From positions 434,806,001 to 434,870,000 of the forward strand of contig CM097882.1 in NCBI GenBank assembly GCA_044892505.1: a DNA stretch of 64,000 bases, given 5' to 3'. Below the pieces are notes generated by a model. It saw only the letters and a list, made by a program, of their open reading frames with translations, made no database searches and was not told the origin of the DNA. Position 1 is the stretch's first letter. Each line of letters opens with the position of its first letter. This DNA comes from Schmidtea nova. Lineage: Eukaryota. The position numbers and the translations under genes are program-made. This document shows positions 40,694 through 64,000 of the stretch, piece by piece.

Positions 40694-40699
40694 TAGTTT

Positions 40700-43215: not shown

Positions 43216-43244
43216 ACGAAAGCAAGTCTCTGTAGCATCTTACT

Positions 43245-46012: not shown

Positions 46013-46212
46013 CTGCATCACTTTCCACCAAGTTCTATTAGTTTTTTTTCTCGGTTTCCTAAATTTCTTTCGCAATTCTTTCTCAGGTTCTTCCATTTCA
46101 TTCACAAATCTTTCCAAATACTTTCTGGACACTACAAAATACCATATTATTATATACTAAACTACTATATTACGTATCTACATTATAGTATTTCAAAATG
46201 TCCTCCGCATCT

Positions 46213-46290
46213 TCCTATGGGGGCTGATGAAGTGGTCTAGAAAGCCGATATCGAAGATTCTCTCAAATGATATTAGATTTTCAACAAGTC
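46213..46290 (+). promoter_or_regulatory. PPT-like G-run and start of a truncated 3' LTR
   Basis: tcctatgggggctga then TGAAGTGG at 46228; same arrangement as 3247-3263. Confidence 0.5.
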
Positions 46291-46536
46291 AAATGACGAT
46301 TTACCTCCAAAAACAATCTTAGTAAAAAAATAATATAAAATTTTAAACTGTGATAAAATTGTAAAACTTTTATTAATATCCTTGTACAAAAACATTTTGT
46401 TTTAATTAAAGGTATAAATATTGGGATTTTTAAAATAGATAGTTTGAGAAGTTTATTCAATTCGTTAAATTTTTTGAAATAGAAATTTTTGAAATTTATT
46501 ACATTTTCAAAGATTATAATATTAAAAGCATTAATT

Positions 46537-46888
46537 ATGATTCTTTTATGCTTCTTTATCAGTGTTCTGCTACAGACAAACAACTAATGAATGTCCATGT
46601 TTTATATCGACATGGCGATAGAGCACCTGTTATTATATATCCAACTGATAAGAATAGGGAAGACAAGTGGCCCAATGGGATTGGAGGATTAACAAATCGA
46701 GGAATTATGCAGCATTTTAATTTGGGCATGTGGCTACGACGTCGTTACAATGACTTCCTTGGGCAATATTTAAACTATTCATTAATAGAGCATTAATGTC
46801 TGCCGAATCAAATCTAGCAGGTTTATTCAACAACCTATCTAAAGAAGTGATCAACGGTCTAAAGTGGCATCCTTTCCCGATTCAAACT
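46537..46888 (+). pseudogene. Intronless fragment of a histidine acid phosphatase (ACP2/ACPP-like)
   Basis: Signal-like start, VLYRHGDRAP, WPNGIGGLTNRG, LGMWLRRRY, RALMSAESNLAGLF, WHPFPI; frameshift and internal deletion. Confidence 0.85.
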
Positions 46889-46961
46889 CGATCAAGACAT
46901 TTGTGTTTATCACCACCAAAATTTGCCTTTCTTCATTCCTTTGGATTTTTATTAAACGTAT

Positions 46962-48137
46962 TTATTTATCATGTTTTGCCGTAATCAGGTATTTGGCTAC
47001 AAACGGGCATAAACATGCTAGTAATTTATATGAATTTCCGAATACTTGTTTCAGCTGTCGTAGTGATTCTAAGGAAGAACAAATCATTTTTAGTAAAAAC
47101 AACCGTATAGTAAATTCCCAAAATTGTAGAGAACATGTTTCCAAGGACTGCAAAATATCCCCATATACTATATAATACTTTATATACTACTTTTTTGAAA
47201 TATTCTTTTGATAACACCACGTCAGAGTTGTAATTTCCTCCATAACTTCCTTCGATAACTTTGTTCACCATTATTGACAGTATTCCTTCTTTTTCGTTTG
47301 GGAATAACATGTGTTTTCTTGCACTTTCTATAGCTTCTCTCGTATATATGCCATTGCTATCCATATCGTTGATTTCTTTAAACTCCAATCTTTTTTCAAG
47401 CTCTATGAGTTTTAATTTGAGGGGTTTCATCGCCTCTTTCCTATCTGACATAGATATCCACATTTCGTCATTTATCTTATATAATGGATTAGTACATTTT
47501 TCTATTTTTCTTGGTACATAAGTTTTTTCTGTTAGTATTCTCGTAATCGGTTGAAGGTATACTCTTTCTCCTTTGTATACTACAGGTAACTCGTTTGTGC
47601 ACTGATTGTTTGTTGCTAATGATACACTAACAGGTTTACATTGGAATGTCTGTATTACTTCCCCTACTATTCTAGCAAATGTTCCCTCTTCTGAAAAGAT
47701 TATTGGGGCCATTAAATCTTGGTTTGTTACTGCGACTGCCATTTTTGTTCTTAATATTTCTCGGTTGAGTTTGCAATCGCTCATAATTGTTGATTGGTAC
47801 ACTTTATCTAGTTGCACTAACTGATTATGATAGAAGAAATCGATTTTATTGTTAAAATACGAAGCGAGTTTGACGTTGAATTTGTTTACTTTCTGTTTTG
47901 CATCTTTAACTTCTTCCTTACTTACGTATATCCCTTCATAATTAGTTCGTATTATTTCCTTACCGCATTTTACACTTTTTCCTTTACTAACAAACCTCAT
48001 TTCTTCATTTTCGGATTCTGACATATATATTGTTGGTGTATCTTTTTCTTGTACAATTGTTGTTTTTCTTTTCTGATCTCTTACTCTTTTAGAATCTACT
48101 TCTGTGAACTGCTTCCCTTTAATTTCTCTAAATTCTC
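46962..48137 (-). pseudogene. env: Chuvirus-like class III fusion glycoprotein (env-like), C-terminal two-thirds with TM
   Basis: CGKEIIRTNYEGIY..YFNNKIDFFY..DCKLNREIL..GTFARIVGEVIQTFQCKPV..CTNELPV..YLQPITRIL..WGYFAVLGNMFSTILGIYY; frameshift near 47080. Confidence 0.8.
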
Positions 48138-48265
48138 GTTTCAAAAATTTAGGAAACGAGCGAATTTACAAAATGTAAAAATCTCTGGAGAGGCAGGCAG
48201 TGCTGATAATAAAGCTGCTGAGGATTTTGTAGCTAAATTCGATGATTTCCTTAAAGAAGAAAATC
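48138..48265 (+). mobile_element. Internal pogo/Tigger transposase fragment
   Basis: FQKFRKRANLQNVKISGEAGSADNKAAEDF matches the Tigger/pogo motif RFKKR..L.NVK..GEAASAD. Confidence 0.75.
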
Positions 48266-49400
48266 TATTTATTACCCAACTCATCCATCCTTCTTCGGAT
48301 TCTTCTCTTTCTACTCTTGTTAAACGGTTTATTTCTACTGCTTGTCTTTGATTGATGTTACTTATAGTTTGATTTTCTCTGGTGAGCTCAGTTATAACTC
48401 TTTTTTGCTCTTCTGTTCTATGCAATTGTTCAAAACAGTTGTTATAACTCTCTGATAATAGAATTTGTCTTTCCGCTAGTTGGTTTTGTAATGAGTTGAC
48501 TGTTCGTACTAGTAAATCACATTGCGCTTTCCATCTCATGGCCATAGTTATTTCAGTTGTTTCGTCTTGTTCGTTCATTTCTAAATTATATACATCAATT
48601 ACTTTCTCGTTTTCTCTTTTTATGTATTTTATAATATCGATACCCATACTATTACGGTAATGCTTTATTATTTATACTATTATTTACAGTCATAATCCGC
48701 CCCTATACTCTCATTACTTTCCTTTCGTCGTATCTCTCTTCATCTTCTATTTGCTTCCAAAATTCTTTACCTTTCGTTCTTCTTTGAAATTCTTTCTGTA
48801 TTTCTTCTGGTATTTCTATTCTTTGATTCGTAATTTTAATATCTGGCCATTGTATGGCTGTCGCTTTATTTCTCCTCCTGTACATCCAACATACTATCAT
48901 GCTCGTTGTCAGTATTCCACCTGTTATTAATATTCCCATACTAATTACTCCTATTACTATTTTACCAGTGTTTGTTTCTTTGGTTTTATTCTGATTCACC
49001 CTTATCTCATATTTGTCTTGGATTTGAGCCTCCGGCTTCCTCTCCTTCTGCGCTTGGCTCTTGACTTTGTTCATTACTTCTTGTGTAGACCAATGGTGGT
49101 TTAGTATTTGTTTGGCGTAGTTTTCCGTTGTTCGGTTTCTCATGTTTCCTGTTTCGATATGTTGATTCAGTTTCTCCGAGATCTGGTATGATCCGCACTC
49201 TGTCTCCTCTGAATTTTTTCCTGTAAAGGTACATATCGCGTATGTCTCATTTACCTCCTTTTGCCTTAATTCGACTTTTCCCTTGTTCCCTGTTTCTTTA
49301 CAATGGGTTAGGTTATCTTCTTCTACTTCTGGGTTATGTTTTATCCAACATACTCCTTTCACAGTCTGTTTGAGTCCTATTAATGTTAAATTATTATTTC
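48264..49400 (-). mobile_element. Fragment of a sister copy of the giant element (last FN3-like repeat, TM, tail, spacer and coiled-coil ORF)
   Basis: Collinear with ~56177-57310; proteins 48703..49362 and 48264..48578 closely match 56622..57280 and 56137..56493. Confidence 0.93.
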
Positions 49401-49953
49401 CTAGCGATTTTTCTTTTGAGCGCGTTATTCACTAATATATAACGAACAACTGTTTTATAACTAAGTTTTATTAATATATTACAAATGCTGGGTTCATGGA
49501 GGGGTTAGATGGAAAATGCTCTAACAATGACTAGGGATCCCTCATCCATGATCATGCATAAAATTGCAATTCTACACTCAAGCGCCCTTGATTATTTCCC
49601 TATATAATCAAGTTGGTGATGCGCAGGGTGGTTAAACAATGATGGGCAGGTGAGCACTATCGCTAGTACTACTCCCCATTTATGTTTACGGGTTCATCGC
49701 TGCCGTTAGAAGGACTTATGCTTTAATCATCTACTTATGTATTCCGCGTTAATCTTTCAGAAAATTTATTTTTATCATTGCTCAGTCTGCGAGAAGTATT
49801 TCAACGAATGCTCGCTTAATGATTTAATTATCTCTATTCGATATTTTGTAAAATGAATTTATACTTTTGTTCTATCTTTATCTAATCATTGGTAAAGTTA
49901 ATTAAATCAATTTAAATGAACGATAAAATTCTTAAGCCAATACAACAATTTAT

Positions 49954-50550
49954 TTAATTTTTAATTAGTTCGGTAAAAACTCCCGCCGGAGGAAAAATCT
50001 CCGTCAATAATGCCTCCTCGGTCATCTGATGTAGACCATCTACTTGGCTTTGTAATCGCTGGGCAAATAATTTTCTCCGTCTCCGCCGTTTCTGCCCAAT
50101 GCGCTTGCGTTTCTGGTGCGCATTTGCCGATGAGGTGGTTGAATTTGCTGCAGGAGCGGTCTCATTCCGACTTTCGATTAGATCGGCGACATCCGTGCCA
50201 ATAGAGGTTACCGTCTTCTTTTCTGATGTCCAAGCTTGATACGTAACCGGACGGATTTGCTCTCTGAGCTCTTTCTCAATATATGAGGCCGTTACGGAAT
50301 GGAGGCATTTTCGGAGTTCTATCTTTGTAGCCTCCCATTCCTTTTGATAATCGGCTGCCGTCTGTTGGGCGCGCTCGGTTTTACTGATTTGCTCCTTCAT
50401 TCGGGCCGGAGCAAACCAGCTTTTGCGCAAGTATGCAATCTGTGCCTCTGCTTTGATCAATTGTGCCTTGAGGAGACCCAATTCCTTGTCCTGGGCTCTC
50501 CGAATCCGCCACATCTTTTCCAATTCTCTCTGCATCAAATCGGTGTTCAT
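49954..50550 (-). CDS. Hypothetical coiled-coil protein with basic NLS-like tract, inside the putative LTR
   Basis: 198-aa ATG ORF; KRKRIGQKRRRRRK; TAG-a-ATG context. Confidence 0.55.
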   Translation of the reverse strand: MNTDLMQRELEKMWRIRRAQDKELGLLKAQLIKAEAQIAYLRKSWFAPARMKEQISKTERAQQTAADYQKEWEATKIELRKCLHSVTASYIEKELREQIRPVTYQAWTSEKKTVTSIGTDVADLIESRNETAPAANSTTSSANAHQKRKRIGQKRRRRRKLFAQRLQSQVDGLHQMTEEALLTEIFPPAGVFTELIKN

Positions 50551-50727
50551 TCTATAATTTGTTTAGGATATTTACTCTATGATTTAATTATATAAAAATT
50601 AAAATCTGATCATAGGATTATTAGGTTACGAATATGAACTATTAAAATGCGAAACAAAACTCAAAAACAAAAATTCACTAATGAACTCTAATATTTTAAC
50701 ACAATTTCAACATTTGTTAATCAGTTT

Positions 50728-51204
50728 TCATCTCCGAAACAAACTATGCAATTCACTGTTAATCGGTTTCTGACGAAGACGAGCCCAAGAGAATGAGGGT
50801 TGTCCTTTCTGGCACTCCTTGCCGAACGGTTTTCGTGGTAAGAATTCGTACAGACCCAGTTGGCATAGCTCTCGACGAGGGATATGCCCCCAATAAATTA
50901 CACGGCTTGTCCGTCCATCTGTGTCCTTGATCAGTACGACAAGTCGGCCAAATTTGTTTGAGTACGGCCTTTGGGAAATCGGCCAGTTCGGTCCTCCTCG
51001 ATAGAGTATTTTATCGTTTCCTCCGTCCCAGATGGAAAACGGGCACTTTCGACCAAACCCTTGCCGCCACTTGTATGCTTGGGCGTTAATGGTCCGCAGA
51101 ATTGGCTGGGGCAACTCCTTGAGCTGATTGGCCCATCCATTCGCCCTGTCCTCCTTTCCTGAGTTCCGAATCCGCATTAATCTTTCGTTCAACGATGTCC
51201 GCAT
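50728..51204 (-). CDS. Hypothetical basic protein inside the putative LTR
   Basis: 158-aa ATG ORF, relatively GC-rich island flanked by AT-rich spacers; CAG-ATG context. Confidence 0.5.
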   Translation of the reverse strand: MRTSLNERLMRIRNSGKEDRANGWANQLKELPQPILRTINAQAYKWRQGFGRKCPFSIWDGGNDKILYRGGPNWPISQRPYSNKFGRLVVLIKDTDGRTSRVIYWGHIPRRELCQLGLYEFLPRKPFGKECQKGQPSFSWARLRQKPINSELHSLFRR

Positions 51205-52841
51205 CTGTCATTTTATTTTATTCAATAAAGAGTTGAATGTAAATTATATTTAATCTCCATCGTTTTAGTTAATTCCATTTCGTGATTAAACCATTGCCGC
51301 GATATACCACGGTCGAATAAGATATTTGTTTTCCCTGCGCCATGTACGACGATCAGGATAAGATTAATCTGAGTTACCGCGCTATGTACAGCGATCGGCA
51401 TAAAAGTATTTTTAGAATTTACAGATTTTTAGTTTTATTTAGAATGGAATTTAAAGTATTTTTAGAATGTACCAATTTTCAGTTTTACTAATCTCTGTCA
51501 TGCAGTTGCGATATCCTGTACCTTGACCTCAATTGAAAATCATCAGTTTGATCGATTTACTTGGAAAATTTTTATAACTTGTCATGCTACGCCGGCTCTC
51601 TCGTCCTCAAATTTAACCTCAGCGTGTCAACCCATTTGTCTCGGGTACCTGACACTTATCGGGTACTTTACCCCTTCCTGGTATCTCCTTAGACCTTCTC
51701 TACCGCCGCTGCGCTACGTCCCCTGTACAACCAAATGATGACTTTTTACCTATCGCCAGAAAACCGTCTGGACGTATTCGCATTATTGATATTTCGTGAC
51801 TGAAAATTTACTCGACTAAATAAGCATCAAAATTCTCTAATCTCGCTGATAAATATCTGGTTAACTTTGAATGATTTACTTTAATTGTTTCAACTACCAA
51901 ATTAAAAATGAAAACCAAAACAATAAAAAGGTTGAACCGCCATGTGAGACCGTGAGGCCCCACAACGACGACTCGGACTCCCTCGCCGCGTGAGCAGCAT
52001 AGGAAGTATAACTATATGCATTAAAAATAATAAAAAAAATAAAAAATAAAAAATAACGTTTACATATAAGATTTTAATTAAATAAAAATCATGGGTACAT
52101 CATATAAGATAACATAAAAAAAATTACTTCCGTACTTGAATGTGTGGTTCCTTGTATGAAATTCGGTTCTTTCAAAAAATTTACTCAAATCAAAGTTTAG
52201 TCTTGATTGTGAGTGAAAAGTAAACGTCTAAGTCTGTGATTTTTGGATCGGTATTTATACTGATCCGTCTGGTTGGATTGACCAATCAGGATCAGGCCGT
52301 CCTTCAAAGTATTTTTATTATTTTAATCTAACCTAAACATTATTTTGTTTCCTTTTCCGGTTTCTCGCTGGGTGGTCCTGATTTTCCAAGTAATTAATTA
52401 ATTATTTGTACTATTATTTTATTTAATTCTATTTTTTCTTATTTCAGGCCCCCTTTTGCGGTTGTTTACCGGTTTATTTTCAAAATTTCCTTTTACTGAA
52501 AATTTATCAATTATTATTTGTCGTTTTATTGTTATTTTTAATTTGTTTTTCTTGCTATTTTTATTTTTATTATTTCTTTATTGTTTCATGCTTTTGTTCG
52601 TTTTATTGTGTTTTTAGGTGATTTGGCGGGCCCAACATCACCCGGGGACCCCTAAAATTGCGTCCCGCAATTAATTATACATAAATACTTATATTCATCA
52701 TCCATAAAAAGTTTTATAAAGTTATACATGCAAGAAAGAAAATCACATAAGGTGATCGAATTTATACATATCATAAAGTTTGTCACTAAATAGTCAAAAT
52801 GTAATGATTTGTCACAATAGTTCGATAAGTTATCATAATGT

Positions 52842-53411
52842 TTATACAATTTGTTCGATCGTCTGGCTCGCTTGGGGTTGAGTTCGGGTCCTCTCGTTGA
52901 TTATTTGTAGCTCGTAGTGGGTTTGAATGTGGTTGAGATGGCTCCTTATTCGTCTTTGAGCTCGGTTATCTCGTCTGGAGGTTTGGTTGTAGATTTTCTG
53001 CTTTTGTTTTAGGATTTTTATTCTATATGAGGCAAGCAGGATTGTGATTGCGATGATAGTTGTGCTGACTGCTAGGATTATGATGATTGCTATGATCCAT
53101 TTTCCTTGATATTCTATTTCAGCTTGGGATAGGCTTTTTATGGGTTCTCTACCTTCTTTCAGGATTTTTCGGGTTTCTTCTAGTTTCAGTTGTTGTTTAT
53201 CGAAGATTTGTTGGATTTGATGGTCTTGATTGTGAGGGTATTTCTGTCGGAATTCGTTGATTTCTTTAATTACTTCTTCGATTAGGCTGTCTACTTTCTG
53301 ATAGGTTTTGTCGGGTAGAACTCGTAATTGGGTTTCGGTTAGTTGTAGATCTTCTCTCTGTAGGGTAATGGTTGTTAACCATAGGAGTGTTGCTATTGCG
53401 AGCTTTCTCAT
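52842..53411 (-). CDS. Small type I membrane protein (signal peptide, helical ectodomain, TM, basic tail)
   Basis: MRKLAIATLLWLTTITL; WIIAIIIILAVSTTIIAITILLASY followed by RIK. Confidence 0.7.
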   Translation of the reverse strand: MRKLAIATLLWLTTITLQREDLQLTETQLRVLPDKTYQKVDSLIEEVIKEINEFRQKYPHNQDHQIQQIFDKQQLKLEETRKILKEGREPIKSLSQAEIEYQGKWIIAIIIILAVSTTIIAITILLASYRIKILKQKQKIYNQTSRRDNRAQRRIRSHLNHIQTHYELQIINERTRTQPQASQTIEQIV

Positions 53412-53486
53412 CTCTTTTATACATCGGTCAATACAGCTTGACACTTTTTATTTTACATAATTTATTTACACTTGGTTTCCGCACAT

Positions 53487-54548
53487 TTATACAAGGGTTT
53501 CGTTGGGTTCGTGACAACCTTCGTCTTGAGGTTCCACTTGATTTATGGGGAGTGGCATCCATATTACCGTGCTCCTCCACATTTCGACTTCTTCTCGGTA
53601 TGTGTGGGATATCTGGATCTCTTCATCTAATAAGTATTCCAGATAGTTCGCCTGTTCTGTTAGGGTTTCAATTTGCTTTTCTAGTTCTGCCAATTTTTTC
53701 TCTCTCTCTTCCTTCTCCATCATTTCGGTTACTGCTGCTGTGATACTTGTTTCTTTTATTGGTATTGGTTTTTCTGCCAACTTCTTTCTCAGTTCTTCGT
53801 TTTCTTTTGTCAAATTTGTTATGTTCTCTTCATAGCTCTGCCTCGTTTCTTCCAGTCTTTCTTTAGTTCTTTTTAATTCTATTTTCTTCTGGGTGATCAC
53901 TCCTTGATATCCATTTATGTCTCTTTTCATGTTTTCCTCCTTGTGATTCCACATTCCGGTCAGCATACCTTTTAATTGTTCTTGATTGGCTAAATCTTCT
54001 CCCATTCTTTGTACTTGATAAGTTAATTCTTTTATTTTCTTGGCTTGTTCTCTGATAAATTGTTGTCTTTTCTTACTCCATACTTTATTTGACGCTTCTT
54101 GACTGATCTTTTGCCCTAATTCCTCTTTTAATTCATCGATCTCTTTAAACAGTTTCCAATCATCGCTGTACGCTGTTCGTTCTATTATCTCCCTTGCTTC
54201 CTTGTAAGAGTCTTCTGCCTCTTTCTTCCAATATCTTGCTTGTTCTGTGATTGACTGAATCTTATGGTCTGTTTTTATTTGTTGTCTATCCCTATCCTCT
54301 CGTCGCTCTTTCATCATCTCTTTGTAGTATTCGTTTTGTTGTCTTAGCAGTTTGTAGACTTCTTCTATTTTTTCTCGACTTCTTTGATTCGTTTTCTCGG
54401 CTTCTCTTAGTGCTTGGGTTTGTCTTTCCAATTCCTCCTGTTTTCGATAGTAGGCATGAATCCATATCCCAATCCGCTCCATGTGATTTCTGATCATTTC
54501 GTCTTGATGTACTGTTACTTCTTGTAAGGTTACTTCTATATTTCCCAT
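53487..54548 (-). CDS. Long coiled-coil protein, 353 aa
   Basis: E/K/R/Q-rich heptad-like sequence; uninterrupted ATG ORF starting MG. Confidence 0.75.
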   Translation of the reverse strand: MGNIEVTLQEVTVHQDEMIRNHMERIGIWIHAYYRKQEELERQTQALREAEKTNQRSREKIEEVYKLLRQQNEYYKEMMKERREDRDRQQIKTDHKIQSITEQARYWKKEAEDSYKEAREIIERTAYSDDWKLFKEIDELKEELGQKISQEASNKVWSKKRQQFIREQAKKIKELTYQVQRMGEDLANQEQLKGMLTGMWNHKEENMKRDINGYQGVITQKKIELKRTKERLEETRQSYEENITNLTKENEELRKKLAEKPIPIKETSITAAVTEMMEKEEREKKLAELEKQIETLTEQANYLEYLLDEEIQISHTYREEVEMWRSTVIWMPLPINQVEPQDEGCHEPNETLV

Positions 54549-54667
54549 TTCTATAATTACAGATAAAACGAATATTTAATCATTTTTTATTTTTATTTTT
54601 ATTGTTTTTGATTATTTGTTAATTCATATTGTTTCTATACATTTTATTTACATGGTTACTTCCTTCA

Positions 54668-56044
54668 TTACGCCAACCATCCTTTTCTGTCTGTTTTCTC
54701 ATGCCTCTCCATCTCTATGTATAGCGTGTCTGCATATAGTTGCTCCCATAGGTTTTCTTTCCTTATAAACATTGGTTCTCCTGCTGCTAGTCCGCATTCT
54801 GTTGTTGGTTTTTCGCTCGTACTCGTATGTTTGTCTGTTTCAAAGAACTTTTCTACTGGTTTTCCCATACTTTTGATTCTTATAATGACTCCTACTTTCA
54901 AGGGCCATTCTATTAGGTCATCGTATTCTCCTTTACATAGCGAGAAAAATATTGACACGTGTGTTCCTTGTCCCCTTCCGTCTCCATTTGGGTATACTTT
55001 CAATCTTATTTTAGCCCCGTTTTTCCATAAATAAAATGGTGGGCTTATTACTGCTGTTTTCGTCATATTTCTGGCTTCTGCTAGTTTGTCTCTGAAATCT
55101 GTTACTTTCCATAGGTAAGGTGCGATTGGTAAGTCCCTTCTTTCGTCAATTTCTCGTATTAATTGATTATATTGTATTTTCATTCCTTTTCCTAATTCTT
55201 CTATGGCTATTATTTTCTTTTCCATTCTTTCGCGAGTTAGTTCGAACTGCTCTCTTGTTTCTAGTAGTAAACTCATCATTATCTTATGTGATTCTACTTC
55301 TTTTTCTAATTTCTGGATTGTCTGTTCCGTTTCTTTTGTCGTTTCGTTTGTCATTTCCACATGCGTTAGTGCTGCTTCTTCTAGATGTTTGTTCATTGTT
55401 TGTCGCGTCCGCTTTTCCTTGCATCCATGCTTGTTATATGGGCATTCTCTTGGCCTTTCGGTACATACTTTCCAATGTTCATGTAACTTTATTTCTTCTG
55501 TTATTTCACAATTGTTTGGACATTTACTTGCATATTGTCCGCATACTTTCTCCTCTGTTATATTCAAATGTTCTTCTTTGATTTTTCTCCTTGTTTCTCG
55601 GGCTTCACAATACTCGCATGCGATTTCTTTTTCTTTACATTCTTCCTTGTGTTGTTCTCTCTTCTTTAGAATTATTGTCTGTTGGCACTTCTCGCATTCG
55701 GTTCTTTTCTCCTCGCACTTTTCCATATGGTTTTCTAGATTACTTATTTGTCCTTGCCATGTACAAGGTGTATTTACGCACTCCGTTGTGGTGCTCATAA
55801 TTTCTCTTTGGGTTGCTTTGTCCGTTCGGGTTTCGTCCAACGCTATTCCTCCTTCTTTACATTCTGGGCATGTTGTTATTCCTGTTGCATCTAATTCTTG
55901 TATACATTTTGTACATATTCTACATCCACATATCGTTTGTCTGGGTTCTCGTAATAAATTGTTACATTTTCCGCATGTGAGCCTCTTGCTCCATTTTCTG
56001 TTTTCCAATCTCAAAATTTCGATTATTCGTTCTTCTCTGTCCAT
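54668..56044 (-). CDS. TRAF: Intronless TRAF2/3-like protein (RING, TRAF zinc fingers, coiled coil, MATH), retroelement cargo
   Basis: CGKC..LREPRQTICGCRICTKC..CPEC; multiple C..C..H..C fingers; YLWKVTDF..SPPFY..LKVYPNGDGRGQGTHVSIFF..GEYDDLIEWP..AGEPMF..DTLYIE. Confidence 0.95.
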   Translation of the reverse strand: MDREERIIEILRLENRKWSKRLTCGKCNNLLREPRQTICGCRICTKCIQELDATGITTCPECKEGGIALDETRTDKATQREIMSTTTECVNTPCTWQGQISNLENHMEKCEEKRTECEKCQQTIILKKREQHKEECKEKEIACEYCEARETRRKIKEEHLNITEEKVCGQYASKCPNNCEITEEIKLHEHWKVCTERPRECPYNKHGCKEKRTRQTMNKHLEEAALTHVEMTNETTKETEQTIQKLEKEVESHKIMMSLLLETREQFELTRERMEKKIIAIEELGKGMKIQYNQLIREIDERRDLPIAPYLWKVTDFRDKLAEARNMTKTAVISPPFYLWKNGAKIRLKVYPNGDGRGQGTHVSIFFSLCKGEYDDLIEWPLKVGVIIRIKSMGKPVEKFFETDKHTSTSEKPTTECGLAAGEPMFIRKENLWEQLYADTLYIEMERHEKTDRKGWLA

Positions 56045-56136
56045 TTTCTACAATAATATATACATTCGACTTGTCATTTATTTTTGGTTTTTCTTGTTTT
56101 TATTTTTACATATTTACAATTTTCCGCTTTATTTAT

Positions 56137-56621: not shown

Positions 56622-58070
56622 CTATACCATCATTATCGTCTTTTCTTCGTATCGTTCTTCATCTTCTATTTGTTTCCAGAATTCTTTACCTTTCGTTCTT
56701 CTTTGAAATTCTTTCTGTATCTCCTCTGGTATTTCTATTCCTAGTTTCATGATTTTGATATCTGGCCATTGTATGGCTGTCGCTTTGTTTCTCTTTCTGT
56801 ATCTCCAATATACTATTATGCTTGTCGTCAGTATTCCATATGCTATTAATATTCCTATACTCATTAATCCTATTATTGTTTTTCCACTGTTTGTTTCTCT
56901 TTTATTCTGGTTCGCTTTTATCTCATTTTGGGTTTGAGCCTCTGGCTTCTTCTCTTTCTGTATTTGACTCTTAACTTTGTTCATTACTTCTTGTGTAGAC
57001 CAATGGCGGTTTAGTAGTTGTTTGACGTTATTTTCTTTTGTTCGGTTTTCCATGTTTCCTGGTTCGATCTGTTGTTGTAGTTTCTCTGAGATCTGATATA
57101 ATCCGCATTCTGGTTTTTCTGAACCTTTTCTGGTGAAGGTACATATCGCGTATGTCCTATTTACTTCCATTTTCTTTAATTCGACTTTTTCCTTATTCCC
57201 TATTTCTTTACAGTGGGTTAGGTTGTCTTCTTTCCCTTCTGGGTTATGCTTTGTCCAACATATTCCTTTAACTGTTTGATCGAGTCCTGTTATTGTCAGA
57301 GTTCTTTCTGTCTTTGTTAATTCTTCTTCATCGAATTTCAGTATCTCTCCTTTTTGGAATGTCTTGCAATGCTCTATTCCCTCTTGGATTCCTCTCTCCC
57401 AGATACATATACTTCCTTCTTCATTCATTTGTATTTCTTGTATTTCGATTTCCTTGTTTGTTCGTGATTCGTCGCTTGTCTGAACTTGGTATTCCTTCCT
57501 TGGTTCGTTGTATGTTCCCCAGCATAGTTTGTTGCTGCTTGTTTTTCTTATTGTTATGGCCATTTGTTCTATTATTATTCCTTTATCGATACGTTTGGAC
57601 ATTGCTATTATCAACGCTATGCATACGCACTCTTGTTGGGGTGATGTTCTTTCTCTCGTGTTATTGGTGCTTTTCTCCCCTTCTCCTGGTTTATCCGTTG
57701 TGTTTCTTATCTGAGTTGCTGGTTGATCTATGGTGTTTTTGATTTCTTTCTTTGTTGGTTTTACTCTATACCATTCAAGTCTAGGTGTTTCGTATTTTTG
57801 GCATACGACTGTCTTAGGTAGCCCCGACTTCTTTTCCTTTCCTATTATGCATATCCGATGCATGATTCCTCTATCCATCCCTTCTATTCGTACTATATCC
57901 TGGTCGGATTTTCTGATTATGCATTTTAGGGGGTTATCTTTCCCAATTGGTTCATCCTCTCTATTCCAGCATATTTTCTCGACCTCCTGGACATTTACTA
58001 TTTTTATCCCTGCTTGTAGGTTTGTTGCTTCTTCCCTATTGATTAATGTCAATATTATTGTTAGACCCAA
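56622..58070 (-). CDS. Type I membrane protein with three Cys-type FN3-like repeats; paralog of the polyprotein C-terminus; lacks an ATG
   Basis: WLGLTIILTLI signal-like segment; ICW..C..I.I..(Y)..IC..C..Y repeats; IIGLMSIGILIAYGILTTSIIVYW-RYRKRNK. Confidence 0.8.
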   Translation of the reverse strand: MGLTIILTLINREEATNLQAGIKIVNVQEVEKICWNREDEPIGKDNPLKCIIRKSDQDIVRIEGMDRGIMHRICIIGKEKKSGLPKTVVCQKYETPRLEWYRVKPTKKEIKNTIDQPATQIRNTTDKPGEGEKSTNNTRERTSPQQECVCIALIIAMSKRIDKGIIIEQMAITIRKTSSNKLCWGTYNEPRKEYQVQTSDESRTNKEIEIQEIQMNEEGSICIWERGIQEGIEHCKTFQKGEILKFDEEELTKTERTLTITGLDQTVKGICWTKHNPEGKEDNLTHCKEIGNKEKVELKKMEVNRTYAICTFTRKGSEKPECGLYQISEKLQQQIEPGNMENRTKENNVKQLLNRHWSTQEVMNKVKSQIQKEKKPEAQTQNEIKANQNKRETNSGKTIIGLMSIGILIAYGILTTSIIVYWRYRKRNKATAIQWPDIKIMKLGIEIPEEIQKEFQRRTKGKEFWKQIEDEERYEEKTIMMV

Positions 58071-58107
58071 CCATTTTGAACTCTGCGGTAGGCTTCTGGT
58101 TCGCCTT

Positions 58108-61100
58108 TCATATTTTTTTCTCTTCGCCTTTAATCTCTTTTAGTTCCTTGTCTTTGTTGTTCATCCCTAGTTTTGCGATTTTTGCTTCTTTCTTATTCCT
58201 GGTCGATTTTGGTTCTTCTCGTGCTTCTAGTCTTTCGACTCCATGGCTTGTATTATCTATATTTAGCCATTGGGTTGTTGATTTTCTTGGGCTTATCTTG
58301 CGTATCCATATAGCTGATAACGCGATTATTACTGGTATGGTCGCTGTTAATATTCCTAAGCCAATTAGTTCTTTAATTTCTTTATTCTCGTCTGTTTGTA
58401 TAGATTCGCTTTGGTTGAACATTATTCCGTATTGTCCCTTTAGTTTTCTCATTAATTGTTCCCGTTCCTCCTGCTTTCTTTTGACTTCCTTGATAACTTC
58501 TTCGGGTGTCCGTTTTGCTTGAGGGTCGGTTATTGTTTTTTCTGCGTTCATTTGTTCATTCGTTTGGCTTAGTTCCCTGAATTCGAGTTTCCTTGTTATT
58601 CCTTTTGATGTTGCGTTCGCTGGTGTATAGTAGGTTTCGCATCTTTCTTGTTGGTTTCCTAGTGCGTCCGTTTTTTCTATTGTACATACTTCGTATTCGC
58701 TATTAAATTGTAGTTTTTCGATCTTGATTTCTTTATTTGTTTTTCTGCACTTTCTTGATTGTCTTCTTATATGTTTCTGGACTATTATCCAACATATTTC
58801 CAATGTTTTATTCTCTATTTTCCATAATGTCAGAGTTGCTGATGTCTTTCTCTCGGGTTTTGTCGTAACTTTTTGGTTTGTTGGTTGTTTGTCGCTTTTA
58901 AGGGTAGTGGTGTACTTCGGTTTTCCTTTGTTTCGTTGTTTCCTTTTATTTTTCCGTGTTAACGTTTTGGTTCTTGTTCCGGATGAAGTGGTGTATATTC
59001 CGCATTCTAGGTCGTTTATCGTTATCTGATCATTTTTCTTTACCAGACATATTTCGTAAGTTTGTTTACTTTCTAAACCTTTTATTTGTATCGTCGTTGC
59101 TCCTGTGCTTGTTCGACATTGTGGTGTCTTTCTTTCATTCGTCTCTTTTTCGTACTTCCTCCAGCATACTCCTTTCACATTTGGTTCTATTTCTTTTATT
59201 TCTAATGTTATGTTTAGTTTCTGCTTGATTTGTTTATTTCTCTTCCTCGTTCTCCTTCTGAACTTTATTACTTCTCCAGGTTGGAATGTTTTACATTTTG
59301 TGGTACCTTTCTTGTTTGTCTCTTTTTCTAGTAGGCATAGTTTGTACGTCTTATCTGCTTTTACTTCGGATACTTTAATTACTTTATTCGTTGTTGGTTT
59401 TCGACTTTTCCTTATTTCATTTACGCCGATTTCCTCGTTATTCCTTGCCCAACATTTTATGTTAGTATTCTGTGTATCTTCTACTTCTGTTATTGTCATA
59501 GTTTCAATTTCTATTCCTTCCTCTAATCGTTTTATCATTATTAGTATGAGTGCTAAGCATAATACTTCCATTTGGTAAGACACTCTTTCGGTTTCGTTTG
59601 TGGCAACTCTTGCTTCGGGCCTCTTTATTGTAATTCGTATAGTTGGTGTTGTTTGCTTATCTATTACCTGGGGTTTTTTGTTTTCTGTTCCCTGTGTCTC
59701 TGTTCTTCCACATTTTCCGAGGATGTAATCTCCTTTGGGTGACTGTTGTATTGTCATGGCTGCTTTAGGTGTTTGGTATTTTGCACATGCGATTGTGTTG
59801 TGTGATCTTGGATGCTTTTGTTTTCTAACGGTGCATATTTTGTACCAGGTATCTAGATCTAAGTCATTGATCTCTATGATCTCTTGCTCGTGTTTTGAGA
59901 TTCTGCAATCCATCGGGCTATTTTGTTCCGTGGTTTTGTCCTTTTTCGACCAACATACTCGTTCGATTCCTTTTGCGTTTTTTATTTGTATTATTGCCCT
60001 TTCTTCACATGTCATTCCCTGACTTGGATTAATTAACGTTATAATCATTGTTAGTAATAGTAATTCTGGTTTGAAGAATGGTTTTATGGTTGATTTATAA
60101 CCTGTTCTTTGGGTGTCATTTTTATCTCCTTGGTCGTTTGTTCCTTGTTCTCTCCCTTCATCTCTTTGTTTTTCATCTTCACCTTTCTTTCCTTCCTTGT
60201 CTCGTTTCTTGTCTTTTCTCTCGTTTTCCTCTTTATCGGGTGGTTCGTGATCGCTTGAATTTTCTGAGTTGTTACCGTCGTCACTATCTGTGTTGTCATC
60301 TCCCCCTGGCTCGTCGAAAATGTCGTCCTCGACATTGATTTCTTCTATTAGTTTCGCATACGCTAATGTCGTTAGATTACTTGCCTCAAATTCTTGTGTT
60401 TCTACCTGCTCCGGTATTACTTTGTTAGTGGATTTATGTTCCAAGATTTCCTTTTTGGCCTTGATCCAATTGTTGATGTATGTCTTCATCAATTCTTTCC
60501 ATTTGCCTGTGTATTTTTCCTCTTTCGGGCTGGTTGTGATTTTTAGATCTTTTCTTTCCATAAACATCTTCAATATCTCTGGCCATTTATACGTTATTAA
60601 GGCACTTCTTATACACCAGTTTTGGTTATGTTCTGTAAACTTATTAATCCTGAATGCTGGTTCGTTAGTATTAGGATTTATCCACGTAAGTATTGATTCT
60701 GTTAGTTCGACGTTGTTCATCATTGCTAGTACACTGGGTTTCTTGACCGTATCAGTTAGGTGATCTATTTCTTCCTGATTTGGGACGGTTTTAATGAAAT
60801 TGACCATTTCCCAATTGTGTGTTAATAATGCTACATCCAATATCGAATTATCTTTATCTGTCTTTCCTGTAAGTCCTGCACCTGCTTTGTATAGTTCTTC
60901 TAATACCTTTGTTTTCGTTCTGGCCCTTGCTGCAAATACCATAAGTGTATCTCCTTTCTCGTCTATCATATTCATATTGCTTCCGCAATTTAGCATTACT
61001 CTTGCAATTTCCATTACTTTTCTATCTTTGCCATTTCGTAAAGCTCTATGTATGGGCATTATTCCGTCTTTTGGTAGTAAAAACGCTACTGGCATCTCCT

Positions 61101-64000
61101 TTTTTATAGTCGTTATATCGTTACCATTGTATGTTCCTTTTGCGTATGCGTGTACTTTTTCAACTAATGCACCGAGTATTTCCAGTGCATGTTTACTATT
61201 CTCGAATTCCGGTAACAATTCTTTTGCTTTTTCTTGTATCGCATCTAGTCTAGCTTGGTATGGTGCTTCTGCTTTGAAGAGTGGTGTGAGTTTCTTGTTA
61301 CTTTCTCTTTCTTTTTTCTCTAAAACCTGTTTGCATTTTTCGGGATGGTTTAAGATTTTTACTAATTCCTCATATTCGCTTACTATCGTCTGGTATTTCT
61401 CGTTAAAATTGTTTATGTCTTTGTATGTTATTAGTTTATCAAGTGGTTTCGCACACCATTTCCTAATCTTATTGAATAAGGCTTCCTTCTCTTTATCGAA
61501 TTTGTATTCTTCTTCATTCTTTGTGATGTTTATGTTTCCTCTGTCTAATAAGGTTAGTAATGTCTTCTGATCACAAGTAAATTTCAAAAGGTATCTTAAC
61601 AGTGCGTTTTGTCCTTCGCTGTATACTTCGTTTATGTCTAAGACCCATGTATCATCTTCTGGTCGTTTCCATTTGATTAACTTACGGATCGTGTTGCATT
61701 TACCAATTTTGATTGCCTCTTTGATAATGTCTCCTTTAACTAGTTCGTCTATCTCCCAAGTGGAGTTAGCTATTATGTATTTCAGCATTGGTTGGTGAGA
61801 ACTCCATATTACGTGATTTAGCACTGTTTTGTCTTCTCTATCTCGTTCTGTCCAACTGAAATGAGCTTTTATCAATAGGTCTATCATTTCTTTATCTGCT
61901 TGGTGGATTGCGGCTGTCATTAATGGAGTTTCTTGTTCCCGATTCCCTACGTCCAAGTTTTGGTTTGTTTCTTTTGCGATTTTTAGGAATTCTTTTGCTC
62001 TTTCAATGGTTTTACACTCTATCGCATTATGTAAGGCTGGTTGTCCTCCTACATCTTTCAATAAGAGTATTTCAGGGATTTTTTCCAATAGTTCAGAAAT
62101 AATTGGTTCGGTTGGTAATCCTTGTGCGTAACGGCTAATTATATGTCTAATATCCCTTGATATGTCTGCTTCGTCTCTAACATGCCATCTTCCCATTATC
62201 TCTCTCGCCTTCAATATGATTTCTTTATTTCTGATTTCTTTTTGCCTTATTTCTGCTTTGTCGTCTTCAGTTGCATTAGCTCTGAGCATATTTATCCTGG
62301 CTGTTTGTGATCTAGTTATTATTCGATTTTCTGGTGTTGTAGTTATCGTTTTAGGCACCTTCTTACATCTGCAGGTGTTTACATATATGGGTCGTATTAA
62401 CGGTCGATTTATTAGCTTAACTTTGACATTGTTGTCCTTTTTGTATATAATTTCATAAGGTCCTCTTCCAGGTCTTTGGAGTTTCTTAACAGTTCCTGGT
62501 ATTATTTCGGGAGTTTCTATTATCACCCAATCTCCTGGTTTTAGGTCGTTCGCTTTAACATTTTTCTTCTGGTCGTGTAAATCCTTATAACTTTCCTGAT
62601 AAAATTTAATGTTGAGTTCTGCCGTTTTCCATATCTCCTGCATTCTTTCTTTGAATTTGGTTACGTAGTCGTCATCTTCCATATATTGCGCTAATGGTGG
62701 CTGATACTCTAAATCTATGGGCATGTTGCATTCTCTTCCATACATAAGTTGAAATGGGCTTAGTTTTGTTGCTGCATGTATCGACATTCGGTATGCCATT
62801 AAACATAATTTTATATATGCGTCCCAATCAGTCTGATGTCTGCTGACGTAATTTGATAACATTCTGATCAATGTACCATTGAATCGCTCCGTTTGTCCAT
62901 TCGTTTGCGGGTGATATGGTGAAGTTCTCAATTTTGCTATTCTGAAATAGTTTGTTACCTCGTTCAATAACTCACTCATAAAATTAGTTCCTTGGTCTGT
63001 GAGTATTTGTTTTGGAGTTCCGTATCTGCAACATATTTCTTCCACTAAAATTTTTGCTACAGTTTTTGCTTTTTGGTCTTGCATGGCAAATGCTTCCGGG
63101 AATTTTGTCAGATAATCTGTTATCACCAATATATAAATATTTCCGTTTAGACTTTCCGGTAATGGTCCTATTACGTCCATTGCTATAGTTGTCATTGGCT
63201 CTGCTGGTATCGGCATTGGTTGTAGCGGGTTTTTCCATTTCCTCCCACTATCCTTTCTGGTTGCACAAGTTAGACAATTTTTAATCCATTCCTTTATATC
63301 TTCTTCCATTGTTCGCCAATAATATTTTTGTCTCATACGATTTATTGTCTTCTTCTCGGACATATGACCTCCTAATTTCCCATCATGGTACTGGATCATT
63401 ATCTCTTTCCTTCTGTTTTCCGGTAAACACATCAATCTCTTTTCTCCGTCTTGTATTAACAACCATCCTTTATTTATTATGTAGCGATGTTGATATTTCC
63501 CTATATGTTCCTTTAATTCCTTATTATCCTTGAATACCTCCATATTTCGAGACGTTAGGAACTCTATGATCTGTCCCAATTCTTTGTCTTCCTGTTGATC
63601 TTTCTTTAACTCACTAAAATCTAAATCCTCCGCTATTAATACACAAATTCGTTGTACATCAGGATCGGTTAATTCCGGAAATGTCAGTCTTGACATACAA
63701 TCTGCATTCGCATTCGCTCGTCCTGATTTAAATTTTATGTCTGGTGAGTACTCCTGTAACTGCATTGCCCATCGCATTAATCTACTGGATGTTTCCTTGT
63801 GCTGTCCTAACCATACAAGTGGTTGGTGATCTGTTGTTATGCAGATGATGTGTCCCCATAATAGGTATTTAAAATGTTTAATTGCTAATATAATCGCTAA
63901 TGCTTCTCGCTCTGTCACTGAATAATTTTTCTCATGCTTTTTGAATGTCCGGCTATAATATCCGATTACCCGTTCCTTTCCTTCGTCGTCGTATTGTCCT
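58108..64000 (-). CDS. pol: Pol polyprotein: RNase H - integrase (HHCC, DDE, GPY) - ankyrin clusters - acidic linker - signal - 4 FN3-like repeats - TM - tail; open to the window edge
   Basis: EREALA, TDHQPL, YHDGKLGGH..CLTC, AMDVIGP, LTDQG, TERFNG, GRGPY; GQPALHNA, ETPLMTAA, IMPIHRAL, GDTLMVFAA; LLLLTMIITLINPSQG; LIGLGILTATIPVIIALSAIWI-RK. Confidence 0.93.
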   Translation of the reverse strand, partial: GQYDDEGKERVIGYYSRTFKKHEKNYSVTEREALAIILAIKHFKYLLWGHIICITTDHQPLVWLGQHKETSSRLMRWAMQLQEYSPDIKFKSGRANANADCMSRLTFPELTDPDVQRICVLIAEDLDFSELKKDQQEDKELGQIIEFLTSRNMEVFKDNKELKEHIGKYQHRYIINKGWLLIQDGEKRLMCLPENRRKEIMIQYHDGKLGGHMSEKKTINRMRQKYYWRTMEEDIKEWIKNCLTCATRKDSGRKWKNPLQPMPIPAEPMTTIAMDVIGPLPESLNGNIYILVITDYLTKFPEAFAMQDQKAKTVAKILVEEICCRYGTPKQILTDQGTNFMSELLNEVTNYFRIAKLRTSPYHPQTNGQTERFNGTLIRMLSNYVSRHQTDWDAYIKLCLMAYRMSIHAATKLSPFQLMYGRECNMPIDLEYQPPLAQYMEDDDYVTKFKERMQEIWKTAELNIKFYQESYKDLHDQKKNVKANDLKPGDWVIIETPEIIPGTVKKLQRPGRGPYEIIYKKDNNVKVKLINRPLIRPIYVNTCRCKKVPKTITTTPENRIITRSQTARINMLRANATEDDKAEIRQKEIRNKEIILKAREIMGRWHVRDEADISRDIRHIISRYAQGLPTEPIISELLEKIPEILLLKDVGGQPALHNAIECKTIERAKEFLKIAKETNQNLDVGNREQETPLMTAAIHQADKEMIDLLIKAHFSWTERDREDKTVLNHVIWSSHQPMLKYIIANSTWEIDELVKGDIIKEAIKIGKCNTIRKLIKWKRPEDDTWVLDINEVYSEGQNALLRYLLKFTCDQKTLLTLLDRGNINITKNEEEYKFDKEKEALFNKIRKWCAKPLDKLITYKDINNFNEKYQTIVSEYEELVKILNHPEKCKQVLEKKERESNKKLTPLFKAEAPYQARLDAIQEKAKELLPEFENSKHALEILGALVEKVHAYAKGTYNGNDITTIKKEMPVAFLLPKDGIMPIHRALRNGKDRKVMEIARVMLNCGSNMNMIDEKGDTLMVFAARARTKTKVLEELYKAGAGLTGKTDKDNSILDVALLTHNWEMVNFIKTVPNQEEIDHLTDTVKKPSVLAMMNNVELTESILTWINPNTNEPAFRINKFTEHNQNWCIRSALITYKWPEILKMFMERKDLKITTSPKEEKYTGKWKELMKTYINNWIKAKKEILEHKSTNKVIPEQVETQEFEASNLTTLAYAKLIEEINVEDDIFDEPGGDDNTDSDDGNNSENSSDHEPPDKEENERKDKKRDKEGKKGEDEKQRDEGREQGTNDQGDKNDTQRTGYKSTIKPFFKPELLLLTMIITLINPSQGMTCEERAIIQIKNAKGIERVCWSKKDKTTEQNSPMDCRISKHEQEIIEINDLDLDTWYKICTVRKQKHPRSHNTIACAKYQTPKAAMTIQQSPKGDYILGKCGRTETQGTENKKPQVIDKQTTPTIRITIKRPEARVATNETERVSYQMEVLCLALILIMIKRLEEGIEIETMTITEVEDTQNTNIKCWARNNEEIGVNEIRKSRKPTTNKVIKVSEVKADKTYKLCLLEKETNKKGTTKCKTFQPGEVIKFRRRTRKRNKQIKQKLNITLEIKEIEPNVKGVCWRKYEKETNERKTPQCRTSTGATTIQIKGLESKQTYEICLVKKNDQITINDLECGIYTTSSGTRTKTLTRKNKRKQRNKGKPKYTTTLKSDKQPTNQKVTTKPERKTSATLTLWKIENKTLEICWIIVQKHIRRQSRKCRKTNKEIKIEKLQFNSEYEVCTIEKTDALGNQQERCETYYTPANATSKGITRKLEFRELSQTNEQMNAEKTITDPQAKRTPEEVIKEVKRKQEEREQLMRKLKGQYGIMFNQSESIQTDENKEIKELIGLGILTATIPVIIALSAIWIRKISPRKSTTQWLNIDNTSHGVERLEAREEPKSTRNKKEAKIAKLGMNNKDKELKEIKGEEKKI

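Follow-up and report, generated by a model that had tools for sequence, protein, structure and literature searches.

The window analysed, a 64,000-nucleotide stretch of Schmidtea nova DNA (contig CM097882.1), carries on its minus strand, as do all features given below, a large part of a 29.8 kb retroelement with LTRs of 3.15 kb, an internal region of 23.5 kb and a 4-bp target-site duplication. The 3' LTR occupies 49486..52637, and an identical 5' LTR lies about 12-15 kb past the window end. The family has a high copy number (4,030 first-look candidates, of which 90 were scored, at 89-100% identity). It encodes a single polyprotein of about 5,500 aa, natural copies having frames of 5,657-5,682 aa, in the order Gag–Env–PR–RT–IN–ankyrin–FN3 modules; the Pfam order in natural copies is zf-CCHC, RVP, RVT_1, RT_RNaseH and rve. 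The part of the polyprotein within the window (58108..63999) comprises RNase H, integrase (H2C2 finger and core, 62740..63429), two ankyrin-repeat blocks (60787..62046, Ank_2 E 2e-12), an acidic linker and the first of two repeat modules, here called A and B. Accessory ORFs encode a separate TRAF protein with RING, TRAF zinc fingers and MATH (54668..56047, MATH_2 E 8e-21), a coiled-coil protein with a class I PDZ-like C-terminal motif (53487..54575), and a protein whose signal-like N-terminus and hydrophobic TM-like segment were read by eye (52842..53447). An older fragment of the same family, 86% identical, occupies 48703..49428 and holds an eighth repeat (49174-49401) as well as a TM and a tail. 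Env (PF24664, E 2e-71) is found in the same frame upstream of the protease, between Gag and protease; the element's true env is, judged by this match, a Monjiviricetes-type fusogen far upstream of the repeats, and the claim of an earlier, sequence-only reading that the repeats are not a recognised env class is supported.

By the published description of Burro, the element is to be classed as a Burro-like giant Ty3/gypsy. Burro and GYPSM1 are described as high-copy planarian gypsy-like giants whose internal region reaches up to 25 kb and whose full length, LTRs included, is about 30 kb (PMC6431247); Burro1 is de-repressed when PIWI is knocked down (PMC8532177). The likeness, compared by description, extends to the ~30 kb size, one polyprotein of about 5,000-5,700 aa, a CCHC Gag, an env of mononegavirus type placed in frame between gag and pol, ankyrins and a TRAF/MATH accessory. 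Sister families here contain BIR and BCL2, neither of which was detected in the main family: its scanned ORFs showed no BIR, and no Pfam match at E<=0.05 was obtained for BCL2-like, ubiquitin-like or dUTPase-like domains; a Bcl-2 match in family 2 (E 3e-5) is below the cut-off, and the main family resembles that region weakly (E 0.001). The main family differs from Burro in that TRAF is a separate downstream ORF, in the lack of a BIR match in the ORFs scanned, and in the two membrane modules, together holding seven FN3-like repeats, that close its polyprotein; in the section on Burro in PMC6431247, no post-integrase module of FN3, signal-like, TM or PDZ type is named.

That the array consists of seven Cys-type repeats was confirmed. 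R1 (59764-60006), R2 (59275-59511), R3 (58981-59220), R4 (58615-58848), R5 (57777-58022), R6 (57348-57575) and R7 (57084-57311) gave pairwise z-scores of 2.0-25.4 against 500 shuffles, and a loose CW..C..C pattern occurs in all seven. The four-Cys consensus first proposed holds for five of the seven, R1 and R4 among them, and fails in the three-Cys repeats R2 and R6, where the second Cys is missing; even one four-Cys match arose in 5 of 2000 shuffles. The strongest pairs, R1~R5 (25.4), R2~R6 (15.1) and R3~R7 (14.8), point to a duplicated module in which R5, R6 and R7 are the paralogues of R1, R2 and R3. A related domain had also been claimed for element 2 (family 2), and a single FN3-like domain (40370-40642) does occupy the same slot after the integrase there, but it has no CW and resembles the repeats weakly (best z 4.7, profile iE 0.22, hhalign probability 25.5%); intact family 2 copies continue past it into a stalk, TM and tail ending STLV.

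The same reading had placed four repeats in Pol and three in the next ORF, a division that reflects a frame break in the window copy, at the overlap of two window ORFs (58108..58139): the frame crosses this point (about 58,110-58,140) in 88 of the 90 scored copies. All seven repeats are in one frame in 66 of the 90, frames of at least 5,600 aa occur in 21, and six have a stop inside the match. The repeat modules are under purifying selection. From shared variants in 48 copies, dN/dS was 0.26 for the repeats, 0.27 for the signal-like segments and 0.28 for the TMs, with 0.16 for TRAF and 0.02 for the integrase in the same copies; linkers gave 0.35 and individual repeats 0.16-0.38, all values coming from site counts uncorrected for mutation bias. 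No repeat Cys or Trp is lost in more than one of the copies that cover it. Contigs from three runs of unknown kind contained no interpretable splice joints.

We predict an FN3-type fold for the repeats with high confidence. The confident AlphaFold models are those of R1 and R3 (pLDDT 84 for R3), the model of R2 is not confident, and the fold of R4-R7 is assigned by similarity to R1 and R3. Both models have six strands matching FN3 B–G, with strand A missing; in R1 and R5 the signal segment leaves no space for that strand, and the region before R3 is of low confidence. The best 50 structural matches of R3 were all FN3 or FN3-type (Z 6.7-7.9, rmsd 2.3-3.1 A, 65-74 residues aligned), values that by the tool's own guidance (Z <8) may reflect only a common arrangement, and the best match of R1 reached Z 8.4 (rmsd 2.4 A, 71 residues aligned). 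The superposition of both models on FN3 supports the beta-sandwich that had been proposed, as a prediction. Atlas neighbours of R3 were fn3 clusters at 0.90. A profile built solely from the element's repeats matched 147 proteins, with Pfam fn3 in 28 of the 29 scanned, at per-domain scores that are low (about 3-18 bits) and summed over repeats. No single repeat reached the Pfam cut-off of 25 bits, the best fn3 scores being 12.7 bits (R3, E 0.15) and 13.4 bits (element 2); Foldseek gave no match to PDB or BFVD at E<=0.001, and a profile search of PDB sequences returned only five weak FN3 matches (E 0.25-1.1).

The data do not single out the LRRN/LRFN/FLRT receptors suggested earlier as specific kin. 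The weak Pfam matches are scattered over Fn3_ELFN (R1, E 0.1), Fn3_Dep-1_1st (R5, E 0.09) and fn3 (R3), FLRT, LRRN and LRFN chains are absent among the listed structural matches for R1 and R3, and the FN3 modules contain no LRR or Ig Pfam domain. A genome search with Fn3_ELFN for a host ELFN-type donor yielded nothing over cut-off, and no host FN3 donor was found among six long frames taken from 141 genome Pfam fn3 matches, these being Robo-like or otherwise host-like by eye and scoring nothing against the repeat profile. When module B was used in a word-based protein search, none of the 4,534 candidates (267-851 aa) proved to be a relative. The G-x-C-W repeat type, common to 139 of the 147 profile matches and possibly convergent, raised a bacterial origin of the repeats, which we do not claim; the 147 matches were picked by the same profile, so that an hhalign probability of 89% is circular.

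The repeats are laid out with signal-like segments (SP) and two TMs, as SP-R1 and SP-R2-R3-R4-stalk-TM-tail in module A and SP-R5 and SP-R6-R7-stalk-TM-tail in module B. SP1 (60016..60084) is an internal signal-like segment with a short h-region and basic residues upstream, and SP2 (59515..59571) is a second hydrophobic segment with a conserved Cys; SP3 (58026..58079), signal-like, and SP4 (57579..57632), the second hydrophobic segment of module B, are their respective paralogues. TM1 (58303..58368) leads into a basic stop-transfer and predicted cytosolic tail 1, and TM2 (56805..56876) into tail 2 (56625..56804), the polyprotein C-terminus, whose last residues fit hydrophobic-x-V, a class II PDZ-like pattern. 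TM1 and TM2 score about 0 on a simple insertion scale, with basic residues after each, and SP1-SP4 score 4.9-9.4 as 19-mers, their cores of 9-12 residues resembling the Env signal (3.1); by the signal-peptidase rule, SP2-SP4 have non-canonical -3 residues. The hydrophobic segments, TM and basic stop-transfer noted before are present, as two 19-aa TMs with basic tails, and the segment order predicts the receptor-like type I layout; the statement that each unit is framed by a signal and a TM does not hold for every repeat. Processing by signal peptidase, also proposed, is plausible at SP1 and less so at the second segments, which have a luminal domain before them, no stop-transfer and those non-canonical -3 residues.

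This layout is not confined to the main family. A signal-ectodomain-stalk-TM-tail series follows the integrase in 10 of 10 env-bearing relatives, which include families 2-4 of the same genome, all ending in signal-ectodomain-TM-tail, and six polyproteins from public metagenome sources, where the same ending was seen in six of six. The ten env-bearing elements form one RT clade (SH-aLRT 99, quick tree search) in which RT-RNase H is only 48-58% identical to that of the main family. When 11 domains of the six metagenome relatives, anchored by hand, were made into a profile, R1-R7 scored no higher than shuffles; the relatives' ectodomains thus lack detectable homology to R1-R7, and the shared layout may hide replaced domains. 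In family 2, dN/dS was 0.35 for the FN3 and 1.49 for the stalk. The ectodomain of one relative, P0157, lies near fn3 clusters in the Atlas (0.90) with low recognition, a lead only.

The tails have a common kind of ending. With PDZ classes taken from PMC4810129 (class I being S/T-x-hydrophobic-COOH), a class I S/T-x-V C-terminus is found in 8 of the 10 env-bearing elements (6 of 8 after merging near relatives), compared with none of six other gypsy proteins and three of the 147 FN3 matches. Tail endings are of the -MMV, -TIV, -STLV and -ETFV types. In the main family tail 2 ends -MMV, and 29 of 46 frame ends read KTIMMV; V or I is last in 45 of the 46 and T at -2 (class I) occurs in five. By sequence, the tails point to PDZ scaffolds rather than to TRAF.

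We tentatively favour a reading of the FN3 modules as a lineage-wide type I surface accessory, an attachment or contact protein beside the fusogen. The repeats likely become cell-surface type I membrane proteins via internal signal sequences, and small secreted FN3 units are possibly produced as well. In the topology scheme, which we hold to be probable, the Env TM would return the chain to the cytosol for PR, RT, IN and the ankyrins, SP1 would send module A into the ER lumen until TM1 stopped transfer, and SP3 would re-enter the lumen before TM2 left tail 2 cytosolic. Cleavage by signal peptidase at SP1, which seems rather likely, would separate module A from the preceding ankyrins. SP2 and SP4, being too short for a membrane span, may either be translocated to the lumen or release R1 and R5 in soluble form, the latter option being suggested by the TM-less FN3 of family 5. 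The C-terminal tail would then dock on PDZ scaffolds, probably so for the lineage, with the balance even for the main family and its -MMV ending. Made one-to-one with Gag and Env, the module might gather at the membrane where particles bud and aid the attachment of particles, or of the cells producing them, to neighbouring cells, steps that we offer with slightly less assurance than an even balance would give.

A less likely explanation is that the ectodomains, along with the secreted FN3 of family 5, act as decoy or immune-modulating receptors that bind a host ligand or receptor and so blunt defence or cell death together with accessories of the BCL2, IAP, TRAF and ankyrin types. In family 5, RT, IN and Env are gone, none of its 150 scored copies having a frame above about 1,070 aa, yet a signal and FN3 without a TM are kept beside TRAF and BIR-RING ORFs, as a decoy function would favour; the fast, arms-race-like turnover of ectodomains between families and the relation of Burro accessories to apoptosis and ubiquitination given in PMC6431247 also fit. 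However, no ligand-binding family matched, the per-repeat dN/dS values show no excess of amino-acid change, and a pure decoy needs no conserved PDZ-type tail. Family 5 in turn bears on the idea that the modules assist Env as a chaperone or structural partner, within the ER or the particle envelope, as a second subunit for folding, sorting or budding with no outside ligand, since there signal and FN3 are kept without Env; the ectodomains moreover range from one to seven domains among elements in which Env is conserved. We consider this improbable, even with the module in the same frame as Env in all ten elements and with six-stranded models that could leave an edge for a partner.

More improbable still is a constitutive signalling receptor that recruits the co-encoded TRAF, on the model of EBV LMP1. 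Here the sequence-only reading had suggested that the modules could feed TRAF, and the TRAF ORF is indeed directly downstream and under purifying selection (0.16), the core of tail 2 does not vary among 13 aligned copies, and the relative P0151 has a PxQxS-type motif. When the tails were checked for TRAF-binding motifs, there was no enrichment: the single minor motif of tail 1 is what chance would give (P 0.31), and neither tail 2 nor 8 of 9 other tails contain any. TRAF and TM-anchored FN3 also occur apart, families 2-4 having TM-anchored ectodomains with no TRAF ORF and family 5 having TRAF with TM-less FN3, which argues against the proposal. Captured host-gene debris, passive cargo behind the integrase, is largely refuted and very improbable, for although constraint is far weaker than on the integrase (0.26 vs 0.02) and one copy (L162) has a natural in-frame deletion of SP2-R2-R3, purifying selection is significant, the cysteines are near-invariant, the frame is open in most copies and the layout is kept across so divergent a clade.

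The favoured attachment protein would share with FN3 surface receptors (RPTP/LAR/DEP-1, NCAM, Dscam, Tie2, ELFN, LRRN, LRFN, FLRT) an FN3-type fold, stalk, single TM and short tail, and the F-G strand cysteine pair of the repeats is also seen in three RPTP-ectodomain-like profile matches. It differs in its domains of about 80 aa, six-stranded in the models and with an extra CW and partner Cys, in the absence of LRR, Ig or enzyme domains, and in being encoded within a retroelement polyprotein. The HCV/flavivirus and bunyavirus M polyproteins are cut at internal signal sequences, and an in-frame alternation of signal-like and TM segments would here likewise put glycoproteins in the lumen and enzymes in the cytosol; unlike those viruses, the element is reverse-transcribing and has its RT and integrase flanked by two membrane-protein sets, and SP2 and SP4 break the simple alternation. 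According to PMC4810129, HTLV-1 Env and rabies G have C-terminal PDZ-binding motifs, and HTLV-1 Env uses its class I motif at virological synapses; the elements' motif is instead on a non-fusogenic FN3 protein, not Env, and is class II-like in the main family. Errantiviruses are likewise Ty3/gypsy elements, with F-type or chuvirus/gB-type env (PMC13524379), but their env is typically a separate ORF (PMC6431247), and the passages of PMC13524379 drawn on here, a paper whose main text does not mention Burro, planarian or fibronectin, describe no second membrane protein after the integrase.

A broader and more speculative reading, which we think unlikely as it stands, is that Burro-like elements are endogenous enveloped viruses that combine in one polyprotein a chuvirus-type fusogen and an FN3 adhesion receptor with a PDZ tail building cell-cell contacts; such an adhesion receptor would be the first one encoded by a retroelement, with duplication having raised its short six-stranded FN3 domains to seven here. 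Burro-like elements account for a large share of their hosts' genomes, and much of the giant polyprotein had previously been unannotated. A conserved surface protein after the integrase would be a second membrane component besides Env, and the placement of RT and integrase between two membrane-protein sets in one frame indicates an unusual expression strategy. If the attachment reading is true, surface FN3 repeats would give the elements a means of attaching to neighbouring host cells, and the modules may offer a handle on whether the elements move between cells in a virus-like manner (e.g., from soma to stem cells) or tune host contact and death pathways.

The C-terminal end of the main element's polyprotein carries seven repeats of about 80 amino acids each on the minus strand (R1 to R7: 59764-60006, 59275-59511, 58981-59220, 58615-58848, 57777-58022, 57348-57575 and 57084-57311), spread over an upstream frame (58108-63999, -) and a second frame (56622-58139, -). 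Pairwise similarity among them ranged from z = 2.0 to 25.4 against 500 shuffles, and since the three strongest pairs were R1 with R5 (25.4), R2 with R6 (15.1) and R3 with R7 (14.8), a single module underwent duplication. The sequence-only reading had called seven Cys-type repeats: all seven are real and match a loose CW..C..C pattern, while the full four-cysteine pattern is found in just five (in shuffles of the region it occurred once in 5 of 2000 and twice in none). The related domain it had seen in element 2, a copy of family 2 (40370-40642), has the final two cysteines and a motif of FN3 type in common with them, but lacks CW and resembles R1-R7 weakly.

The reported split, with four repeats in Pol and three in the next ORF, turned out to be particular to the window copy. 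Searching the genome with the second frame yielded 4,030 candidates, and 90 of these (89-100% identity) were scored; 88 had an open frame of >520 aa that thus crosses the break, so that the two window ORFs are one ORF. The frame was long enough for all seven repeats in 66 of the 90 and exceeded 5,600 aa in 21, with a stop inside the match in 6. Together with the neighbouring 30 kb, the window shows the main element to be 29.8 kb long, bounded by identical LTRs of 3.15 kb and flanked by a 4-bp target-site duplication. Natural unbroken copies encode, in order, a CCHC Gag, a Monjiviricetes-type Env, protease, RT, RNase H, integrase, ankyrins and the repeats, followed downstream by a TRAF ORF, a coiled-coil ORF and a small membrane ORF. 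The window copy has three frame breaks in the polyprotein despite LTRs (49486-52637; loci L031-L032) that are 100% identical over 3.15 kb; it is either a young copy from a defective template or marked by assembly errors. Its primer site resembles a tRNA-Pro site. ORFs of 202 and 159 aa inside the LTR (49954-50562 and 50728-51207, -) recur in other copies and had no significant Pfam match. In one natural deletion variant (L162:5037-6017) the R1 linker is fused in frame to R4, with SP2-R2-R3 gone, and in another (L116:2248-2478) a region upstream of env is fused directly to R6.

The claimed FN3-like beta-sandwich was supported by modelling of R1 and R3, at middling structural scores. An AlphaFold model of R3 (29-row alignment) had six strands at pLDDT 84, and its best 50 structural matches were all FN3-type (Z 6.7-7.9, rmsd 2.3-3.1 Å over 65-74 residues), several of these alignments starting near residue 14-18 of the target and so covering strands B-G; Foldseek likewise ranked FN3 scaffolds at the top, none at E ≤ 0.001. 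In a second model, covering SP1-R1-linker-SP2-R2-R3, R1 and R3 were folded (pLDDT about 70-84), SP1 and SP2 were low-confidence helices and R2 was unfolded; R1 also matched FN3 (best Z 8.4, rmsd 2.4 Å). From its sequence, the CW could alternatively lie in strand B, strand C then being shortened, and under either placement the repeat falls short of a standard FN3 in length. A repeat profile matched 147 proteins among 1.84 billion, with Pfam fn3 present in 28 of the 29 of these that were scanned. Nothing specific emerged for the proposed LRRN/LRFN/FLRT likeness: weak Pfam matches of the repeats were scattered over fn3, Fn3_ELFN and Fn3_Dep-1, none passing the cut-off. The F-G cysteine pair is shared by three of the 147 profile matches, which resemble receptor-phosphatase ectodomains.

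Selection was gauged from variants common to at least two of 48 main-family copies, by simple site counts uncorrected for mutation bias. The repeats had a dN/dS of 0.26 (235 N, 218 S), the signal-like segments 0.27 and the TMs 0.28; linkers stood at 0.35, TRAF at 0.16 and integrase at 0.02. Every repeat cysteine and tryptophan was missing from at most one of the copies covering it. Simple site counts in family 2 (23 sequences) gave 0.35 for FN3, 0.17 for the tail and 1.49 for the stalk.

The two paralogous modules run SP1-R1, SP2-R2-R3-R4-stalk-TM1-tail 1, and SP3-R5, SP4-R6-R7-stalk-TM2-tail 2, SP denoting signal-like hydrophobic segments. When 19-mers were scored with a simple insertion scale, the values were about 0 for TM1, TM2 and the Env TM and 4.9-9.4 for SP1-SP4, but the latter have hydrophobic cores of 9-12 residues, as does the pre-Env segment (3.1); basic residues follow TM1 and TM2. 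In the proposed route Gag would be cytosolic, and the chain would enter the lumen at the Env signal and leave at the Env TM, putting PR, RT, IN and ankyrins on the cytosolic side; it would re-enter at SP1 and exit at TM1, then re-enter at SP3 and exit at TM2, leaving the C-terminus in the cytosol, where PDZ motifs work. Since membrane-spanning SP2 and SP4 would orient the paralogous modules oppositely, these segments more likely pass into the lumen or are cut, which would release R1 and R5 in soluble form, comparable to the family-5 product. The conserved cysteine of SP2/SP4 could pair with the odd cysteine of R2/R6.

The family-5 product comes from a non-autonomous family whose frame, protease-like and ankyrin-like by eye, ends in a signal and one CW repeat, then a stop, with no TM (held-out profile iE 1.5e-10). 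Family 5 is high-copy and about 25 kb long, with terminal repeats of 4.2-4.7 kb that are 99.98% identical; its copies (G000:C1:139135502-139160131, L131-L133; G000:C1:369550127-369576170, L135-L137) had no RT, IN or Env ORF and also carry TRAF and BIR-RING (IAP) ORFs, among 1,295 BIR candidates genome-wide. Its coiled-coil accessory ORF (L132:6826-8406) and that of the main family (53487-54575, -) end in E-T-x-V, class I PDZ-like.

Three more families of this genome that carry env (with frames 3,073, 3,401 and 3,393 aa long) and 6 of 6 env-bearing polyproteins from public metagenomes all finish, past integrase, with a signal-like segment and a beta-rich ectodomain followed by a stalk, a TM and a short tail; these six were among 12 search matches, the remainder being named arachnid gypsy predictions without env. 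RT-RNase H sequences placed all ten env-bearing elements in a single clade (SH-aLRT 99 in a quick tree search). The relatives' ectodomains show FN3-like motifs by eye; profile comparison detected no homology to R1-R7, and the Atlas tie of one to fn3 was weak. S/T-x-V C-termini were found in 8 of the 10 elements (6 of 8 once near relatives were merged); by comparison, such an end occurs in 0 of 6 other gypsy proteins and in 3 of the 147 FN3 matches. As the ten elements are related, these ends reflect conservation rather than ten separate origins. Of 46 main-family frame ends, 29 read KTIMMV, with T at -2 in 5 and a terminal V or I in 45, which is class II-like by published PDZ-motif classes (PMC4810129). 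Four relatives (P0152, P0154, P0155, P0156) have additional aspartic-protease-like domains, one post-integrase and directly before the signal segment, and in P0151 the ankyrins precede the protease rather than following integrase. The second ORF of families 3 (L125:2350-3798) and 4 (L128) is DEDDh exonuclease-like by eye, with no Pfam match at E ≤ 0.05.

Nested insertions occupy 37600-49428: a plus-strand gypsy (43178-46012) splits element 2, whose env fragment lies at 47026-48165 and which abuts a main-family fragment of greater age (48264-49386, 86% identity). A domain scan of the window also found a broken gypsy pol (1-2608, +), an RGS-domain stretch that is likely a host exon (8316-8774, +), a mariner-type transposase (11371-12423, +) and a hAT/Spin-doc transposase (27640-29358, -).

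The element class is already known: the main element matches the Burro-like giant gypsy elements described in PMC6431247, whose section on them lists ankyrin, MATH/TRAF, BIR and BCL2 together with an in-frame env that separates gag from pol, and mentions neither an FN3 nor a membrane module past integrase. The main text of an errantivirus survey (PMC13524379) mentions neither Burro nor fibronectin. Among titles and abstracts we found no description of such a module (original Burro/Repbase figures or supplements may bear on it), and no paper pairing Burro and Schmidtea with fibronectin, or a gypsy retrotransposon polyprotein with a PDZ-binding motif. The post-integrase membrane FN3 module, its clade-wide spread and the PDZ-type ends thus appear undescribed in the literature searched.

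As to cellular role, the main rival to the reading we prefer is that the FN3 module acts as a decoy, which we consider rather unlikely. That it recruits the element's own TRAF, as the earlier suggestion of receptors feeding the co-encoded TRAF implied, seems improbable, as a motif search found one chance-level TRAF motif in tail 1 and none in tail 2, families 2-4 have no TRAF ORF between their LTRs, and family 5 pairs TRAF with a TM-less FN3. We tentatively predict attachment or contact, because the membrane protein would be synthesized one-to-one with Gag and the fusogen, is built like an adhesion receptor, and carries at its C-terminus a PDZ-type motif like that of HTLV-1 Env, which acts at virological synapses (PMC4810129).
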